From the NCBI RefSeq assembly GCF_030013595.1, contig NZ_CP122768.1: a DNA stretch of 64,000 nucleotides; one strand, given 5' to 3'. Position numbers and translations under genes: made by a program. Source of the stretch: Escherichia coli. GTDB taxonomy: Bacteria; Pseudomonadota; Gammaproteobacteria; Enterobacterales; Enterobacteriaceae. The notes below the pieces were generated by a model, which saw nothing but the letters and a program-made list of their open reading frames with translations, was not told the origin of the DNA and ran no database searches. This document shows positions 10,294 through 63,239 of the stretch, piece after piece; position 1 is the first letter of the stretch, and the number at the start of each line of letters is the position of its first letter.

Positions 10294-10877
10294 TGGCATT
10301 CAGAATGAGTGAACAACCACGGACCATAAAAATTTATAATCTGCTGGCCGGAACTAATGAATTTATTGGTGAAGGTGATGCATATATTCCGCCTCATACA
10401 GGTCTGCCAGCAAACAGTACCGATATTGCACCGCCAGATATTCCGGCTGACTTTGTGGCTGTTTTCAACAGTGATGAGGCATCGTGGCATCTCGTTGAAG
10501 ACCATCGGGGTAAAACAGTTTATGACGTGGCATCAGGGGACGCGTTATTTATTTCTGAACTCGGTCCGTTACCGGAAAATGTTACCTGGTTATCGCCGGA
10601 AGGGGAATATCAGAAGTGGAACGGCACAGCCTGGGTGAAAGATGCAGAAGCAGAAAAACTATTCCGGATCCGGGAAGCGGAAGAAACAAAAAACAGCTTG
10701 ATGCAGGTAGCCAGTGAGCATATAGCGCCGCTTCAGGATGCTGTAGATCTGGAGATCGCAACGGAGGAAGAAAACTCGTTGCTGGAAGCCTGGAAGAAGT
10801 ATCGGGTGTTGCTGAACCGTGTTGATACATCAACTGCACCTGATATTGAGTGGCCGGAAGAACCAGACACAATGTAA
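10293..10877 (+). CDS. tfa: Tail fibre assembly protein Tfa
   Basis: 194 aa; [44 protein letters not shown]... matches lambda Tfa as recalled; start overlaps stf stop. Confidence 0.9.
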
Positions 10878-11395: not shown

Positions 11396-11758
11396 TGGTG
11401 GAGCTGGCGGGAGTTGAACCCGCGTCCGAAATTCCTACGTCCTCGGTACTACATGCTTAGTCAGTCTTTACATTCGCTTGCCAGCTGCGGACGGACACGC
11501 CACTAACAAACTAGCCTGATTAAGTTTTAACGCTTCAACCCCAGGCAGGGCTTCCACGCGATCTCTTTTGGGTTTGACCTCTCTTGATCCCCGTCCTAAG
11601 AGCGGAGGCTAGGGAGAGAGGGCTCTAAGCAGGTTATTAAGCTGCTAAAGCGTAGTTTTCGTCGTTTGCGACTATTTTTTGCGGCTTTTTACGAGGCCAA
11701 CCGCCCCTCGGCATGCACCTTGGGTTTCGCAAATCCCGTCGAATCCAGAATCAGCCCC
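11396..11758 (-). ncRNA. ssrA: tmRNA (SsrA, transfer-messenger RNA), 363 nt
   Basis: Reverse complement reads GGGGCTGATTCTGGATTCGACGGGATTTGCGAAACCCAAGGTGCATGCC...GGTTCAACTCCCGCCAGCTCCACCA, i.e. full-length E. coli tmRNA including encoded CCA. Confidence 0.95.
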
Positions 11759-29607: not shown

Positions 29608-29630
29608 AGTGTTGCCTTTTTGTTATCAAT

Positions 29631-29660
29631 AAAAAAGGCCCCCCGATTTGGGAGGCCTTA
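29631..29660 (-). terminator. pheA attenuator terminator (minus strand GGCCTCCC-AAATC-GGGGGGCC + T6)
   Basis: GC-rich hairpin followed by T-run on the minus strand between pheL and pheA. Confidence 0.7.
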
Positions 29661-29705
29661 TTGTTCGTCTTCGCATTCTGTTTCACACGACGAAACGCCT
29701 CCCAT

Positions 29706-29753
29706 TCAGGGGAAGGTAAAAAAGAATGCGAAGAAAAACGGTGTGTGTTTCAT
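29706..29753 (-). CDS. pheL: pheA leader peptide PheL (15 aa: [15 protein letters not shown], seven Phe codons)
   Basis: Minus-strand ATG AAA CAC ACA CCG TTT TTC TTC GCA TTC TTT TTT ACC TTC CCC TGA read directly. Confidence 0.85.
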   Translation of the reverse strand: [15 protein letters not shown]

Positions 29754-29809
29754 GTTTGTTTCCTTAAGTGACTTCAGTACAGTACCCGTACTGTTTTCAC
29801 GCTGTCAAC

Positions 29810-33761: not shown

Positions 33762-34489
33762 GTAAGCTGATTGTCCCGCAGTGGCCCCTGCCAAAAGGTG
33801 TTGCGGCCTGTAGCTCTACTCGTATCGGCGGCGTGAGCTTGCCCCCGTATGACTCGCTCAACCTCGGTGCTCATTGTGGCGATAACCCGGATCACGTTGA
33901 GGAGAATCGCAAGCGACTTTTTGCTGCGGGCAATTTGCCTTCAAAACCGGTCTGGCTTGAGCAGGTACACGGCAGAGATGTGCTTAAGCTTACTGGCGAA
34001 CCTTATGCCTCAAAACGAGCAGATGCCTCTTATAGCAACACGCCGGGCACGGTTTGCGCAGTGATGACTGCCGACTGCCTCCCCGTGCTGTTTTGCAATC
34101 GAGCGGGAACGGAAGTCGCCGCCGCTCATGCTGGCTGGCGTGGACTGTGCGCTGGCGTGTTGGAGGAGACGGTTTCCTGTTTTGCTGATAATCCGGAAAA
34201 TATTCTCGCCTGGTTAGGGCCGGCAATTGGTCCACGCGCGTTTGAAGTGGGGGCGGAGGTTCGCGAGGCGTTTATGGCAGTAGACGCCAAAGCGAGTACA
34301 GCTTTCATTCAGCATGGTGATAAGTATCTGGCGGATATTTATCTCCTTGCCCGGCAGCGTCTGGCGAACGTCGGTGTCGAACAAATTTTCGGCGGCAACC
34401 GTTGTACATATACGGAAAATGAGACTTTCTTCTCTTATCGTCGCGACAAGACCACTGGTCGTATGGCAAGTTTCATTTGGCTGATATAA
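33758..34489 (+). CDS. yfiH: YfiH / PgeF (DUF152 purine nucleoside phosphorylase/laccase-like family)
   Basis: 243 aa, start overlaps rluD stop (ATGA); matches recalled YfiH. Confidence 0.9.
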   Translation: MSKLIVPQWPLPKGVAACSSTRIGGVSLPPYDSLNLGAHCGDNPDHVEENRKRLFAAGNLPSKPVWLEQVHGRDVLKLTGEPYASKRADASYSNTPGTVCAVMTADCLPVLFCNRAGTEVAAAHAGWRGLCAGVLEETVSCFADNPENILAWLGPAIGPRAFEVGAEVREAFMAVDAKASTAFIQHGDKYLADIYLLARQRLANVGVEQIFGGNRCTYTENETFFSYRRDKTTGRMASFIWLI

Positions 34490-34551
34490 CCTAAAGAATC
34501 AAGACGATCCGGTACGCGTGATTTTCTTTTCACATTAATCTGGTCAATAAC

Positions 34552-34579
34552 CTTGAATAATTGAGGGATGACCTCATTT
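34552..34579 (+). promoter_or_regulatory. Sigma32 heat-shock promoter of clpB (-35 CTTGAAT, 14-bp spacer, -10 CCTCATTT)
   Basis: Match to sigma32 consensus upstream of clpB. Confidence 0.5.
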
Positions 34580-34618
34580 AATCTCCAGTAGCAACTTTGA
34601 TCCGTTATGGGAGGAGTT

Positions 34619-37192
34619 ATGCGTCTGGATCGTCTTACTAATAAATTCCAGCTTGCTCTTGCCGATGCCCAATCACTTGCACTCGGGCACGACAACCAAT
34701 TTATCGAACCACTTCATTTAATGAGCGCCCTGCTGAATCAGGAAGGGGGGTCGGTTAGTCCTTTATTAACATCCGCTGGCATAAATGCTGGCCAGTTGCG
34801 CACAGATATCAATCAGGCATTAAATCGTTTACCGCAGGTTGAAGGTACTGGTGGTGATGTCCAGCCATCACAGGATCTGGTGCGCGTTCTTAATCTTTGC
34901 GACAAGCTGGCGCAAAAACGTGGTGATAACTTTATCTCGTCAGAACTGTTCGTTCTGGCGGCACTTGAGTCTCGCGGCACGCTGGCCGACATCCTGAAAG
35001 CAGCAGGGGCGACCACCGCCAACATTACTCAAGCGATTGAACAAATGCGTGGAGGTGAAAGCGTGAACGATCAAGGTGCTGAAGACCAACGTCAGGCTTT
35101 GAAAAAATATACCATCGACCTTACCGAACGAGCCGAACAGGGCAAACTCGATCCGGTGATTGGTCGTGATGAAGAAATTCGCCGTACCATTCAGGTGCTG
35201 CAACGTCGTACTAAAAATAACCCAGTACTGATTGGTGAACCCGGCGTCGGTAAAACTGCCATCGTTGAAGGTCTGGCGCAGCGTATTATCAACGGCGAAG
35301 TGCCGGAAGGGTTGAAAGGCCGCCGCGTACTGGCGCTGGATATGGGCGCGCTGGTGGCTGGGGCGAAATATCGCGGTGAGTTTGAAGAACGTTTAAAAGG
35401 CGTGCTTAACGATCTTGCCAAACAGGAAGGCAACGTCATCCTGTTTATCGACGAATTACATACCATGGTCGGCGCGGGTAAAGCCGATGGCGCAATGGAC
35501 GCCGGAAACATGCTGAAACCGGCGCTGGCGCGTGGTGAATTGCACTGCGTAGGTGCCACGACGCTTGACGAATATCGCCAGTACATCGAAAAAGATGCTG
35601 CGCTGGAACGTCGTTTCCAGAAAGTGTTTGTTGCCGAGCCTTCTGTTGAAGACACCATTGCTATTCTGCGTGGCTTAAAAGAACGTTACGAACTGCACCA
35701 CCATGTGCAAATTACTGACCCGGCAATTGTTGCAGCGGCGACGTTGTCTCATCGCTACATTGCTGACCGTCAGCTGCCGGATAAAGCCATCGACCTGATC
35801 GATGAAGCAGCATCCAGCATTCGTATGCAGATTGACTCAAAACCAGAAGAACTCGACCGACTCGATCGTCGTATCATCCAGCTCAAACTGGAACAACAGG
35901 CGTTAATGAAAGAGTCTGATGAAGCCAGTAAAAAACGCCTGGATATGCTCAACGAAGAACTGAGCGACAAAGAACGTCAGTACTCCGAGTTAGAAGAAGA
36001 GTGGAAAGCAGAGAAAGCATCGCTTTCTGGTACACAGACCATTAAAGCGGAACTGGAACAGGCGAAAATCGCTATTGAACAGGCTCGCCGTGTGGGTGAC
36101 CTGGCGCGGATGTCTGAACTGCAATACGGCAAAATCCCGGAACTGGAAAAGCAACTGGAAGCCGCAACGCAGCTCGAAGGCAAAACTATGCGTCTGTTGC
36201 GTAATAAAGTGACCGACGCCGAAATTGCTGAAGTGCTGGCGCGTTGGACGGGGATTCCGGTTTCTCGCATGATGGAAAGCGAGCGCGAAAAACTGCTGCG
36301 TATGGAGCAAGAGCTGCACCATCGCGTTATTGGTCAGAACGAAGCGGTTGATGCGGTATCTAACGCTATTCGTCGTAGCCGCGCAGGGCTTGCTGACCCG
36401 AATCGCCCGATTGGTTCATTCCTGTTCCTCGGCCCAACCGGTGTGGGGAAAACTGAGCTTTGTAAGGCGCTGGCGAACTTTATGTTTGATAGCGACGAGG
36501 CGATGATCCGTATCGATATGTCCGAGTTTATGGAGAAACACTCGGTGTCTCGTCTGGTTGGTGCGCCTCCGGGATATGTCGGTTATGAAGAAGGTGGCTA
36601 CCTGACCGAAGCGGTGCGTCGTCGTCCGTATTCCGTCATCCTGCTGGATGAAGTGGAAAAAGCGCATCCGGATGTCTTCAACATTCTGTTGCAGGTACTG
36701 GATGATGGGCGTCTGACTGACGGGCAGGGGAGAACGGTCGACTTCCGTAATACGGTTGTCATTATGACCTCTAACCTCGGTTCCGATTTGATTCAGGAAC
36801 GCTTCGGTGAACTGGATTATGCGCACATGAAAGAGCTGGTGCTCGGTGTGGTAAGCCATAACTTCCGTCCGGAATTCATTAACCGTATCGATGAAGTGGT
36901 GGTCTTCCATCCGCTGGGTGAACAGCACATTGCGTCGATTGCGCAGATTCAGTTGAAACGTCTGTACAAACGTCTGGAAGAACGTGGTTATGAAATCCAC
37001 ATTTCTGACGAGGCGCTGAAACTGCTGAGCGAGAACGGTTACGATCCGGTCTATGGTGCACGTCCTCTGAAACGTGCAATTCAGCAGCAGATTGAAAACC
37101 CGCTGGCACAGCAAATACTGTCTGGTGAATTGGTTCCGGGTAAAGTGATTCGCCTGGAAGTTAATGAAGACCGGATTGTCGCCGTCCAGTAA
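34619..37192 (+). CDS. clpB: Chaperone ClpB (Hsp100 disaggregase)
   Basis: 857 aa from [18 protein letters not shown]; two AAA+ modules ([16 protein letters not shown]); ATG at 34619 preceded by GGGAGGAG. Confidence 0.95.
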
Positions 37193-37198
37193 ATGATA

Positions 37199-37226
37199 AA
37201 ACGAGCCCTTCGGGGCTCATTTTTGT
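37199..37226 (+). terminator. Intrinsic terminator after clpB (GAGCCC-TTCG-GGGCTC + T5)
   Basis: Perfect hairpin followed by ATTTTTGT. Confidence 0.6.
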
Positions 37227-37307
37227 CTATAAGTTAGACGGAAAAGACTATATTTAAGATGTTTTGCCTGAAAAATGAGCGAACGATAAAGTTTTTATAT
37301 TTTTCGC

Positions 37308-37335
37308 TTGTCAGGCCGGAATAACTCCTTATAAT
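37308..37335 (+). promoter_or_regulatory. rRNA operon promoter P1 (-35 TTGTCA, 16 bp, -10 TATAAT) with AT-rich UP region upstream
   Basis: Canonical rrn P1 hexamers and spacing. Confidence 0.65.
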
Positions 37336-37426
37336 GCGCCGCCACTGACACGGAACAACGGCAAACACGCCGCCGGGTCAGCGGGGTTCTCCTGAGAACT
37401 TCGGCAGAGAAAGCAAAAATAAATGC

Positions 37427-37454
37427 TTGACTCTGTAGCGGGAAAGCGTATTAT
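37427..37454 (+). promoter_or_regulatory. rRNA operon promoter P2 (-35 TTGACT, 16 bp, -10 TATTAT)
   Basis: Canonical rrn P2 hexamers. Confidence 0.65.
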
Positions 37455-37491
37455 GCACACCCCGCGCCGCTGAGAAAAAGCGAAGCGGCAC

Positions 37492-37511
37492 TGCTCTTTA
37501 ACAATTTATCA
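37492..37511 (+). promoter_or_regulatory. rrn leader boxA antitermination element (TGCTCTTTAACAATTTATCA)
   Basis: Exact match to the rrn boxA sequence. Confidence 0.7.
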
Positions 37512-39339: not shown

Positions 39340-39532
39340 CTTGCTGGTTTGTGAGTGAAAGTCACCTGCCTTAATATCTCAAAACTCATCTTCGGGTGAT
39401 GTTTGAGATATTTGCTCTTTAAAAATCTGGATCAAGCTGAAAATTGAAACACTGAACAACGAAAGTTGTTCGTGAGTCTCTCAAATTTTCGCAACACGAT
39501 GATGAATCGAAAGAAACATCTTCGGGTTGTGA

Positions 39533-59810: not shown

Positions 59811-60766
59811 TGAAGCAACTTTGGTTTGCCATGTCATTAGTGACAGGTAGCCTGTTATTCTCTGCTAACGCCTCGGCCACTCCCGCGTCCGGGGCGTTAT
59901 TACAGCAGATGAACCTGGCCAGTCAGTCACTGAATTACGAGCTGTCATTCATCAGCATCAATAAACAGGGTGTTGAGTCTCTGCGTTATCGACATGCACG
60001 CCTCGATAACCGTCCTCTTGCACAATTGTTGCAAATGGATGGCCCGCGCCGGGAAGTGGTACAGCGCGGCAATGAAATCAGCTATTTTGAACCGGGACTT
60101 GAACCGTTCACGCTTAATGGCGATTACATTGTTGATTCTCTGCCATCGCTCATCTATACCGATTTCAAACGCCTTTCTCCTTACTACGACTTTATCTCCG
60201 TCGGGCGGACGCGTATTGCTGATCGTCTTTGCGAAGTTATTCGCGTGGTTGCCCGAGATGGTACACGCTACAGCTACATCGTGTGGATGGACACCGAATC
60301 GAAATTACCGATGAGGGTTGATCTCCTTGATCGCGATGGTGAAACGCTGGAACAATTTCGCGTGATTGCTTTTAATGTCAATCAGGAAATCAGCAGCAGT
60401 ATGCAGACGCTGGCGAAGGCAAATTTGCCGCCGTTGCTTTCTGTTCCTGTAGGTGAAAAAGCTAAATTCAGCTGGACGCCAACCTGGTTGCCACAGGGTT
60501 TTAGCGAAGTTTCCAGTAGTCGACGTCCGCTACCGACGATGGACAACATGCCTATCGAATCACGTCTCTATTCCGACGGATTATTCAGCTTCTCGGTAAA
60601 CGTTAACCGCGCTACGCCATCGAGCACCGATCAGATGTTGCGCACCGGGCGCAGAACCGTCAGTACAAGCGTACGTGATAACGCCGAAATCACCATTGTC
60701 GGTGAACTGCCGCCGCAAACGGCGAAACGCATTGCCGAGAATATTAAGTTCGGGGCAGCGCAATGA
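59810..60766 (+). CDS. rseB: Sigma-E regulatory protein RseB
   Basis: 318 aa with signal peptide, start overlaps rseA stop. Confidence 0.95.
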   Translation: MKQLWFAMSLVTGSLLFSANASATPASGALLQQMNLASQSLNYELSFISINKQGVESLRYRHARLDNRPLAQLLQMDGPRREVVQRGNEISYFEPGLEPFTLNGDYIVDSLPSLIYTDFKRLSPYYDFISVGRTRIADRLCEVIRVVARDGTRYSYIVWMDTESKLPMRVDLLDRDGETLEQFRVIAFNVNQEISSSMQTLAKANLPPLLSVPVGEKAKFSWTPTWLPQGFSEVSSSRRPLPTMDNMPIESRLYSDGLFSFSVNVNRATPSSTDQMLRTGRRTVSTSVRDNAEITIVGELPPQTAKRIAENIKFGAAQ

Positions 60767-61242
60767 TCAAAGAGTGGGCTACCGTCGTCTCCTGGGAAAA
60801 CGGGCAGGCGCTGGTCAGTTGTGATGTTAAAGCCTCATGCAGCAGCTGCGCTTCACGTGCCGGTTGCGGTAGCCGCGTGTTGAATAAACTTGGCCCGCAA
60901 ACCACGCATACTATTGTCGTACCCTGTGATGAGCCGTTAGTGCCGGGGCAAAAAGTAGAATTAGGAATCGCCGAAGGCAGCCTGCTTAGCTCCGCATTAC
61001 TGGTTTATATGTCGCCGTTGATGGGACTATTCCTCATCGCTTCACTATTTCAGCTACTCTTTGCTTCAGATATTGCAGCATTATGCGGTGCGATTCTCGG
61101 TGGCGTTGGTGGATTCCTGATTGCACGTGGCTGCTCTCGAAAGTTTGCTGCCCGGTCTGAATGGCAACCGATCATCTTAAGCGTGGCATTGCCGCCTGGC
61201 CTTGTGCGATTTGAAACATCTTCGGAAGACGCGAGCCAGTGA
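60763..61242 (+). CDS. rseC: Sigma-E regulatory protein RseC
   Basis: 159 aa, Cys-rich N-terminus and two TM segments; overlaps rseB stop. Confidence 0.95.
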   Translation: MIKEWATVVSWENGQALVSCDVKASCSSCASRAGCGSRVLNKLGPQTTHTIVVPCDEPLVPGQKVELGIAEGSLLSSALLVYMSPLMGLFLIASLFQLLFASDIAALCGAILGGVGGFLIARGCSRKFAARSEWQPIILSVALPPGLVRFETSSEDASQ

Positions 61243-61439
61243 TTTCACTGGCTTTGTTGCATTTTGCATAACAAATGCGAGGACGTTTCCAGATACCACA
61301 ATCCATACGGTATGAACATTTCCTCGCCTCAATGTTGTAGTGTAGAATGCGGCGTTTCTATTAATACAGACGTTAAGCTCAGAACAGCGACTTCTAAAAG
61401 CCTGGTTAACCGGGCATTAAGGCACAATAATCATACTTT

Positions 61440-63239
<1,800 letters not shown>

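Follow-up and report, generated by a model that had tools for sequence, protein, structure and literature searches.

The small RNA gene ryfD occupies the yfiH–clpB gap of Escherichia coli and encloses the sigma32 promoter of clpB, with a predicted end-to-end helix built from the start of clpB

The window analysed here, a stretch of 64 kb, is E. coli DNA, and the region of interest lies where yfiH (+ strand, stop at 34489) is followed on the same strand by clpB (34619..37192). The two genes are separated by a gap of 129 bp (34490..34618), as given in the preliminary description. The true start of clpB is the ATG at 34619, which has GGGAGGAG directly 5′ of it; the ATG at 34607 that appears in the list of open reading frames is an in-frame upstream ATG within the Shine-Dalgarno (SD) tract and is not the true start. 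From the end of yfiH to past codon 25 of clpB the sequence is the same as that of K-12 at every base, and of 5426 complete E. coli genomes 5425 carry the 501-bp stretch from 34300 to 34800, each with an identity of at least 95%. The RefSeq records of the best-matching strains annotate only yfiH and clpB across 34300-34800.

The gap is the gene of a known small RNA (sRNA), RyfD, which extends from 34497 to 34639 on the + strand and is 143 nt long. In an Rfam scan, family RF02768 (Ysr155_RyfD) matches 34500..34638 with 125.3 bits (gathering score 42, E = 6e-27), and the match spans the full model (positions 1-140 of 140) and occurs on the + strand only. The K-12 ncRNA gene ryfD (b4609, 2734153..2734295, − strand) maps to 34497..34639 (+) with 100% identity, such that the two agree in sequence, position, strand, 143-nt length and 21-nt overlap with clpB, with no sequence-level difference between them. 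RyfD thus spans the whole 129-bp gap on the clpB strand, runs 21 nt into clpB, and encloses the sigma32 promoter; a tentative suggestion in the preliminary description that RyfD lies beside clpB is borne out by both the family match and the K-12 identity. The same yfiH–clpB context for RyfD is seen in 75 other species, and a search of the 64 kb with a purpose-built covariance model found no second copy, RyfD being single-copy in the window. An RNA on the opposite strand was considered and rejected; that strand folds less well, and across this region the Rfam scan gave no match on it above E = 1.

Published data obtained on the identical K-12 sequence place both ends of the RNA. RyfD of K-12 was first reported by Kawano et al. 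2005 (cited in PMC9808575), and three methods, among them enrichment for 5′-triphosphates, identified its 5′ end as a site of transcription initiation (PMC3415461 Table S2). Term-seq places a very strong 3′ end at K-12 position 2734153, corresponding to 34639 in the window, where it is labelled 'primary ryfD / internal clpB' (PMC7815308). In the available part of the SMRT-Cappable-seq data there is also an rluD|yfiH|ryfD transcript class that begins at the rluD promoter (PMC6131387 Supplementary Data 2). Among the transcript classes listed there, the rluD-promoter class is not listed as reaching clpB (PMC6131387), although this is weak evidence because SMRT-Cappable-seq size-selects long molecules. 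A northern blot has confirmed the Yersinia relative, Ysr155/RyfD, which is made constitutively and independently of Hfq (PMC3672283). Both the sRNA and the clpB promoter are already known from K-12, Rfam and published transcriptome maps, and because RyfD is catalogued and the clpB heat-shock promoter is well known, the locus is real but ordinary; the gain in annotation is an sRNA gene at 34497..34639, which is missing from this strain's standard RefSeq annotation, together with a correction of the clpB leader.

RyfD is predicted to be transcribed from an extended −10 promoter, TGaTATAAC, at 34482..34490 (+ strand), which lies over the last codons and stop of yfiH. Read by eye from the sequence, the hexamer TATAAC (34485-90) ends exactly 7 nt 5′ of the annotated RyfD start at A34497, and a weak −35-like element, ATGGCA, lies at 34463-68 (+) with a 16-nt spacer to this −10. 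A sigma70 scan of 34200-34900 returned no promoter; the scan demands T as the final base of the −10 hexamer, and TGaTATAAC was missed because its final hexamer base is C. Variants of the TGnTATAAC or TGnGATAAC type occur 9–10 nt 5′ of the helix arm described below in 69 of 72 species, and this conservation is confounded because the motif also encodes the C-terminus of YfiH (W-L-I-stop).

It is established that transcription of E. coli clpB depends on sigma32 and is induced by heat, as reported by Kitagawa et al. 1991 and by Squires et al. 1991. The sigma32 promoter is at 34552..34579 (+ strand), with the −35 element CTTGAA (34552-57), a 14-nt spacer, and the −10 element CCTCATTT (34572-79), the latter resembling CCCCATNT and the spacing being within the 13–15 nt range for promoters of this class. 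CTTGAA-N14-CCTCATTT is the single match to a sigma32-type pattern in the 64-kb window, compared with a mean of 0.03 matches in dinucleotide-preserving shuffles, 3 of 100 of which contained any. Across 75 species the CTTGAA never varies, and the −10 varies little or not at all, each position being kept in at least 90% of species. The preliminary description had this promoter as CTTGAAT-N14, and while the promoter itself stands, with a unique motif and a mapped start, the spacing needs amending, being 13 nt if the 7-mer CTTGAAT is taken and 14 nt with CTTGAA. The transcript start is at A34587 (+), from the clpB operon (b2592) start that the available part of the SMRT-Cappable-seq data lists at K-12 2734205 on the − strand (PMC6131387 Supplementary Data 2). 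When mapped onto the window this base is 8 nt past the last base of CCTCATTT, a distance in keeping with a start from this promoter. Because the clpB transcript starts at 34587, the heat-shock leader (34587..34618, +) is only 32 nt, and the long clpB 5′ leader that had been described does not hold; the long RNA made from upstream is RyfD, a distinct transcript that starts at 34497 and mostly stops at 34639.

Fold prediction gives RyfD a minimum free energy (MFE) of −52 kcal/mol (z = −5.6), and the MFE structure reproduces the terminal helix of the RF02768 consensus structure. This helix joins the two ends of the RNA and has two parts, all on the + strand. First, in the outer part (P1a), the 5′ arm AAGACGAUCCGG (34501..34512), which begins 12 nt past the yfiH stop, pairs with 34625..34636, a 3′ arm that consists of clpB codons 3–6 (CUG GAU CGU CUU). 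Secondly, in the inner part (P1b), ACGCGUGAUUU (34514..34524) pairs in both the MFE and the Rfam consensus structures with 34614..34624, a strand that contains the end of the SD tract, the spacer, the clpB AUG (34619-21) and codon 2. P1a and P1b together make a terminal helix of about 23 bp with one bulged U between them that encloses a multiloop of about 110 nt, and the annotated RyfD ends sit 4 nt (5′) and 3 nt (3′) beyond it. Within the multiloop a CUCC anti-SD (34583..34586, +) is predicted to pair with GGAG (34610-34613); all four pairs are invariant in 75 species, so that they show conservation but cannot inform on covariation. Immediately 3′ of this CUCC comes A34587, the sigma32 start. 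A small internal hairpin, UGAGG/CCUCA (34562..34576, +), lies in the promoter spacer in the RNAalifold consensus, with 98.7% of cells paired and a G-C to A-U double change in four sequences, and an alternative Rfam pairing (CCUUGA/UUGAGG plus GAUG/CAUU) fits about as well. We note that the terminator scan also flagged this hairpin as hairpin-plus-T-like.

The position of the sigma32 start relative to this structure has a large predicted effect on the clpB ribosome binding site (RBS). The predicted cost of opening 34606-34631 is 29.6 kcal/mol in a transcript that begins at 34497 and 13.5 kcal/mol in one that begins at 34587. The RBS of the sigma32 transcript is predicted to be much more open because that transcript starts one base after the anti-SD and has no 5′ arm, although it still requires the predicted 13.5 kcal/mol for opening.

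The conservation of the helix was examined by scanning species-representative genomes with a degenerate clpB-start pattern in which all synonymous positions were left free. This yielded 120 loci, 108 of which are ClpB starts, and the upstream arm is present at 80 of the 108 and absent from 28. The arm carriers include the Enterobacteriaceae, Erwiniaceae, Yersiniaceae, Pectobacteriaceae, Photorhabdus, Xenorhabdus and Hafnia psychrotolerans, with Tatumella and H. psychrotolerans being recognised as carriers by an alignment-free duplex scan; the arm is absent from Providencia, Morganella, Moellerella, Edwardsiella, Hafnia paralvei, Budvicia, Rosenbergiella and a few others, as well as from the Vibrionaceae and Colwellia. 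The arm-to-arm duplex energy in RyfD-bearing species is −22.4 kcal/mol versus −10.3 kcal/mol upon shuffling, and in species without the arm it is −10.2 kcal/mol versus −9.3 kcal/mol.

Several patterns of substitution bear on this helix. In 75 distinct Enterobacterales RyfD sequences the outer 10 pairs of P1a are paired in 750 of 750 cells. There are 42 one-sided changes in the P1a 5′ arm across the 75 species, and all are A>G or C>U with a wobble pair kept, while the G and U positions of this arm, at which no transition is tolerated, are invariant. In the 12 pairs of the outer helix, G-U or U-G occurs on the + strand in 63 cells; the opposite strand would have C-A mismatches at these places, which points to pairing of RNA on the clpB strand. 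In Tatumella a P1a A-U pair has become U-A, compensated by a synonymous CTT>CTA change in clpB (2 cells). In the inner helix there are both-sided changes at two pairs of P1b beside the AUG, and, despite a lineage-variable P1b 5′ strand, predictions for 93% of species have the AUG paired within the first 45 nt of the RNA, with a mean probability of 0.84 versus 0.42 when the segment is shuffled.

The number of cells with both-sided changes and the covariation score exceed those of all 500 shuffles and of all slid controls, although kinship alone can beat shuffles. The counts were made both on a plain MAFFT alignment and on an alignment fitted to the structure model, and exceed the controls on both; the inner-helix counts come partly from the structure-fitted alignment and are weaker on the plain MAFFT alignment (helix 1 being 83.6% paired), which aligns the variable P1b 5′ strand poorly. 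Because there is hardly any variation in the 3′ arm or in the anti-SD/SD pairs, Tatumella is the one lineage that provides two-sided covariation in the outer helix, and overall the covariation counts favour the helix and are supportive but fall short of proof.

The coding side of the helix shows a corresponding constraint. Codons 2–6 of clpB are near-frozen at synonymous sites in RyfD-bearing species (entropy 0–0.18 bit), with Leu6 being CTT in 72 of 72. Variation is back at 34639, which is both the last RyfD nucleotide and the third position of codon 7, and Leu codons farther downstream reach about 2 bits; in species that lack the 5′ arm the clpB-start 17-mer occurs in 18 variants. From these sequence comparisons the patterns suggest that the shape of RyfD has been selected jointly with the first clpB codons, and the inferred end-to-end helix, with the synonymous-site freezing, is new here, as a modest addition to what is known of the locus.

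The relationship to the Yersinia Ysr155/RyfD is close in organization, with a shared family model (RF02768), gene context, overlap with the 5′ end of clpB, terminal helix and internal sigma32 promoter. The two differ between the outer helix and the promoter, with a reported 79% identity and 93% coverage to E. coli, and the inner helix covers the AUG with GCGCAUGAC in Yersinia and with ACGCGUGAU in E. coli.

The RyfD 3′ end at 34639 is not a canonical intrinsic terminator, because no U-tract follows the helix; the terminal helix is followed by ACUAAUAAAUUCC, there is no short-loop hairpin, and the terminator scan found no terminator-like site ending near 34639. The Rho score at this end is 1.28 (p = 3e-8), which is under the two-fold criterion of its authors yet among their significant regions (PMC7815308), and the 800-nt windows used for the score also take in sigma32-initiated clpB reads. 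It is equally possible that the end forms by trimming back to the helix after cleavage or termination downstream. The clpB mRNA is affected by RNase G, in an analysis that an overlapping sRNA obscured (PMC4191395), and papers on RNase III and RNase E/III arrays mention clpB only by way of the rrsG-clpB spacer or a reference list. RyfD resembles the 5′ UTR-derived sRNAs that arise by premature 3′ ends (PMC7815308) in being a discrete sRNA with its 3′ end in the 5′ part of a same-strand gene. However, its start is not common with that of the main mRNA, the clpB start at 34587 being inside RyfD, and it has no U-tract terminator and, by this score, an apparently weak Rho dependence.

RyfD probably also has partners in trans. 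A near-invariant segment at 34578..34592 (+), UUAAUCUCCAGUAGC, is complementary to the 5′ end of the lpp mRNA, and pairs with GCUACAUGGAGAUUAA of K-12 lpp through 15 bp and one bulge at −24.5 kcal/mol, covering the first 16 nt of that mRNA. With a 31-nt RyfD segment scored against an empirical null, the lpp match is in the top 0.08% of 8528 windows, but it is not unique in strength, as a few unrelated windows in the 64 kb equal its score; most columns of 34578-92 are invariant in 75 species. The complementarity fits a contact between RyfD and the lpp 5′ UTR recorded in a TRIC-seq preprint (2025). In Salmonella, RyfD ranks with the most abundant of the sRNAs bound by ProQ (PMC8136791), a RaiZ-RyfD interaction has been recovered by RIL-seq (PMC9438474), RyfD elutes in heavy complexes and is without any ORF (PMC9808575), and its overexpression leads to less biofilm and less swarming (PMC4606813). 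It does not have the features of an Hfq-dependent sRNA, being without a U tail, reportedly Hfq-independent, and ProQ-associated. Its similarity to the ProQ-associated structured sRNAs such as RaiZ and the Sib RNAs lies in its high degree of structure, its Hfq independence and its abundance in ProQ co-immunoprecipitates; it differs from these in that its end is a closing helix of long range, from which 3 nt (ACU) overhang, rather than a terminator hairpin and U tail, and in that it overlaps a coding start. No mechanism for RyfD is given in the literature that could be searched.

Taking the sequence comparisons and fold predictions together, we consider it quite probable that the region is a RyfD gene with an embedded sigma32 promoter in which the end-to-end helix sets the ends of RyfD and insulates ClpB from upstream transcription. 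The ends of RyfD would be joined by the ~23-bp helix, with the CUCC:GGAG anti-SD pairing added, such that in transcripts starting at or upstream of 34497 the clpB SD tract, start codon and codons 2–6 would be locked in a duplex. Transcripts that bear the 5′ arm would tend to end at the foot of the helix, whereas sigma32 transcripts, beginning one base past the anti-SD and without the 5′ arm, would have a far more open RBS. The helix would thus have two jobs, the first to define and protect the ends of RyfD, and the second to shield ClpB synthesis from constitutive upstream transcription and leave its control to sigma32; RyfD, once free, probably acts in trans via 34578-92. The data suggest that the heat-shock promoter is placed such that its transcript escapes the RyfD structure. 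If this is true, the locus is a clean case of promoter choice deciding the translatability of an mRNA, and of synonymous sites in the first codons of a conserved chaperone gene being held fixed by RNA structure.

A stricter and more extended form of this proposal can be put forward only tentatively, and we lean somewhat against its holding in full. In this form the helix would be a promoter-selective insulator, with upstream transcripts, whether from the RyfD promoter or from rluD-yfiH read-through, being stopped or trimmed at clpB +21 and untranslatable, and the transcript of the sigma32 promoter in the loop of this RNA, which begins one base past the anti-SD, escaping both fates. The freed RyfD segment would pair with the lpp 5′ end, thereby tying an RNA that the disaggregase locus makes constitutively to the envelope protein of highest abundance.

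A simpler explanation, which we regard as possible but rather unlikely, is that RyfD is solely a stable RNA, either trans-acting or functionless, that the helix serves to stabilise it, that there is no control of clpB, and that read-through is negligible or harmless. This would accommodate the abundance of RyfD, its binding by ProQ and its RNA partners, as well as overexpression phenotypes (reduced biofilm and swarming) that are unrelated to ClpB, and a closed end-to-end helix is a common means of protecting RNA from exonucleases; moreover, no cis effect of RyfD on clpB is described in the literature that could be searched. However, the helix is made from the start codon and RBS of clpB rather than from neutral sequence, and the sigma32 start is exactly one base beyond the anti-SD, choices that look costly and specific if they are without consequence in cis. 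In addition, every transcript passing through the region from upstream must carry the occluding arm.

RyfD could alternatively be mainly a processing product, either of rluD-yfiH read-through or of decay in the clpB region, that is trimmed to the helix. The helix is long and the two ends of RyfD project 4 nt and 3 nt beyond it, as exonuclease trimming would leave them, and the rluD|yfiH|ryfD class in the available part of the SMRT-Cappable-seq data, the sigma70 scan without a promoter in 34200-34900, and the RNase G effect on clpB mRNA with its overlapping sRNA (PMC4191395) all accord with such an origin. We nonetheless think it improbable as the main source, as the RyfD 5′ end was recovered by 5′-triphosphate enrichment and by two other start-site methods, and the extended −10 sits at exactly the right distance, with its spacing to the helix kept in 69 of 72 species. 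Origins from its own promoter and from processing can coexist.

The involvement of a heat-shock gene with a sequestered SD and AUG, as in known RNA thermometers, raises the possibility that the long leader is a thermometer or a regulated attenuator, with heat or a signal letting transcripts from the RyfD promoter into clpB for a sigma32-independent induction of ClpB. Coverage downstream of the RyfD 3′ end is about one third of that upstream (1132 versus 3220 reads; PMC7815308), which could reflect such passage but which the internal sigma32 start explains, and the Yersinia authors speculated about riboswitch-like leaders, although the level of Yersinia Ysr155/RyfD is unchanged with temperature (PMC3672283). 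For the long transcript, opening the RBS is predicted to cost 32.6, 29.6, 27.5 and 26.2 kcal/mol at 30, 37, 42 and 45 °C, and because this cost drops so little over this range, leaving a long and nearly perfect helix (~23 bp, one bulge) far from melting and with no melting predicted between 30 and 45 °C, a thermometer was rejected and we hold this explanation as a whole to be very improbable. The likeness to heat-shock thermometers (rpoH mRNA, ROSE, fourU) therefore extends to the heat-shock gene and to the sequestration of SD and start codon by upstream sequence, whereas the RyfD helix is long, stable and predicted not to melt, and the heat-induced transcript starts downstream of the structure instead.

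It is scarcely credible that there is no selected RNA structure here and that DNA-level elements (two promoters and a protein-binding inverted repeat) together with clpB codon and N-terminal constraints account for the conservation, for although two promoters and a translation start do constrain the sequence, and the invariance of the 3′ arm and SD leaves most pairs without covariation information, the 63 G-U or U-G cells of the outer helix would be mismatched in a palindrome of DNA, as they would on the opposite strand, the freezing of codons 2–6 is limited to arm-bearing species and stops at the end of the helix, Tatumella has its compensatory change, and the opposite strand folds worse, with no Rfam match above E = 1 there.

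Two minor observations concern the surroundings of the gene. Canonical terminators upstream of the promoter are present in 7 of 28 species without RyfD and in 2 of 80 with it, a contrast between the two groups that is suggestive only. The flank 3′ of clpB, which had also been proposed for an sRNA search, was rejected as a site for one, its sole Rfam signal being a match to Ysr197 that stays below threshold and covers the region of the rrn promoters; this flank contains only an ordinary terminator (37203-18) and the rrnG P1 and P2 promoters.

The scan of species-representative genomes for clpB starts recovered loci with and without the RyfD 5′ arm. In the lineages lacking the RyfD 5′ arm (L003, L035, L038, L048, L076, L085, L098, L105 and those of the Vibrionaceae, e.g. 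L034 and L096), a sigma32-type promoter is retained upstream of clpB, and the synonymous sites of clpB codons 2–6 vary freely. A canonical hairpin-plus-U terminator is present 5′ of the promoter at seven of the 28 loci without the arm, compared to two of the 80 RyfD-bearing loci, both of these being marginal. The genus Hafnia is divided, with the arm present in H. psychrotolerans and absent from H. paralvei.

A segment of RyfD at 34578–34592 (+), UUAAUCUCCAGUAGC, shows complementarity to the very start of the lpp mRNA of K-12, GCUACAUGGAGAUUAA (L122, from record position 1757383), and the two are predicted to form a duplex of 15 bp with a single bulged A. Both the anti-Shine-Dalgarno CUCC and the start of the sigma32 transcript, the clpB heat-shock mRNA, lie within this lpp-complementary segment.

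A short way past the 3′ end of RyfD, at 34653–34663 (+), the synonymous sites of clpB codons 9–12 (AAA TTC CAG CTT) are also unusually uniform among the RyfD-bearing species, with entropies of 0.25–0.76 bit. Folding of the sigma32 transcript is predicted to pair CCAG (34650–34653, codons 10–11) with CUGG of codons 3–4.

A second ATG in frame with clpB is located at 34607–34609 (+), 12 nt to the 5′ side of the true start and within the Shine-Dalgarno tract (ATGGGAGGAGTTATG). A mechanical list of open reading frames begins clpB at 34607, and we reject this assignment: both the annotation of K-12 and the conserved N-terminal sequence MRLDRLT place the start at 34619. The short ClpB80 isoform begins at an internal GTG, 35063–35065 (+), with GGAGGTGA upstream at 35052–35059, in agreement with the second clpB coding sequence annotated in K-12 (2731600..2733729).

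The preliminary description had also pointed to the clpB 3′ flank as a place to look for a small RNA, but none is present there. Instead, an ordinary intrinsic terminator at 37203–37218 (+), GAGCCCTTCGGGGCTC then ATTTTTGT, is followed by the rrnG P1 (37308–37335 (+), TTGTCA-16-TATAAT) and P2 (37427–37454 (+), TTGACT-16-TATTAT) promoters. A sub-threshold Rfam match to the Yersinia small RNA Ysr197 (37263–37500 (+); 49 bits, where the gathering score is 167) runs up to the end of the searched stretch, where the alignment stops. It covers the promoters and leader of rrn, a conserved region, and therefore appears to reflect rrn upstream conservation and not a small RNA gene.

Elsewhere in the window, Rfam matches above the gathering score correspond to IS009 (10636–10834 (+)), tmRNA (11396–11758 (−)), the Phe leader (29629–29754 (−)), StyR-44 within the rrnG spacer (39417–39525 (+)) and AsrC, antisense to rseC (60727–61558 (−)). 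The rrnG 16S, tRNA, 23S and 5S genes are likewise matched.
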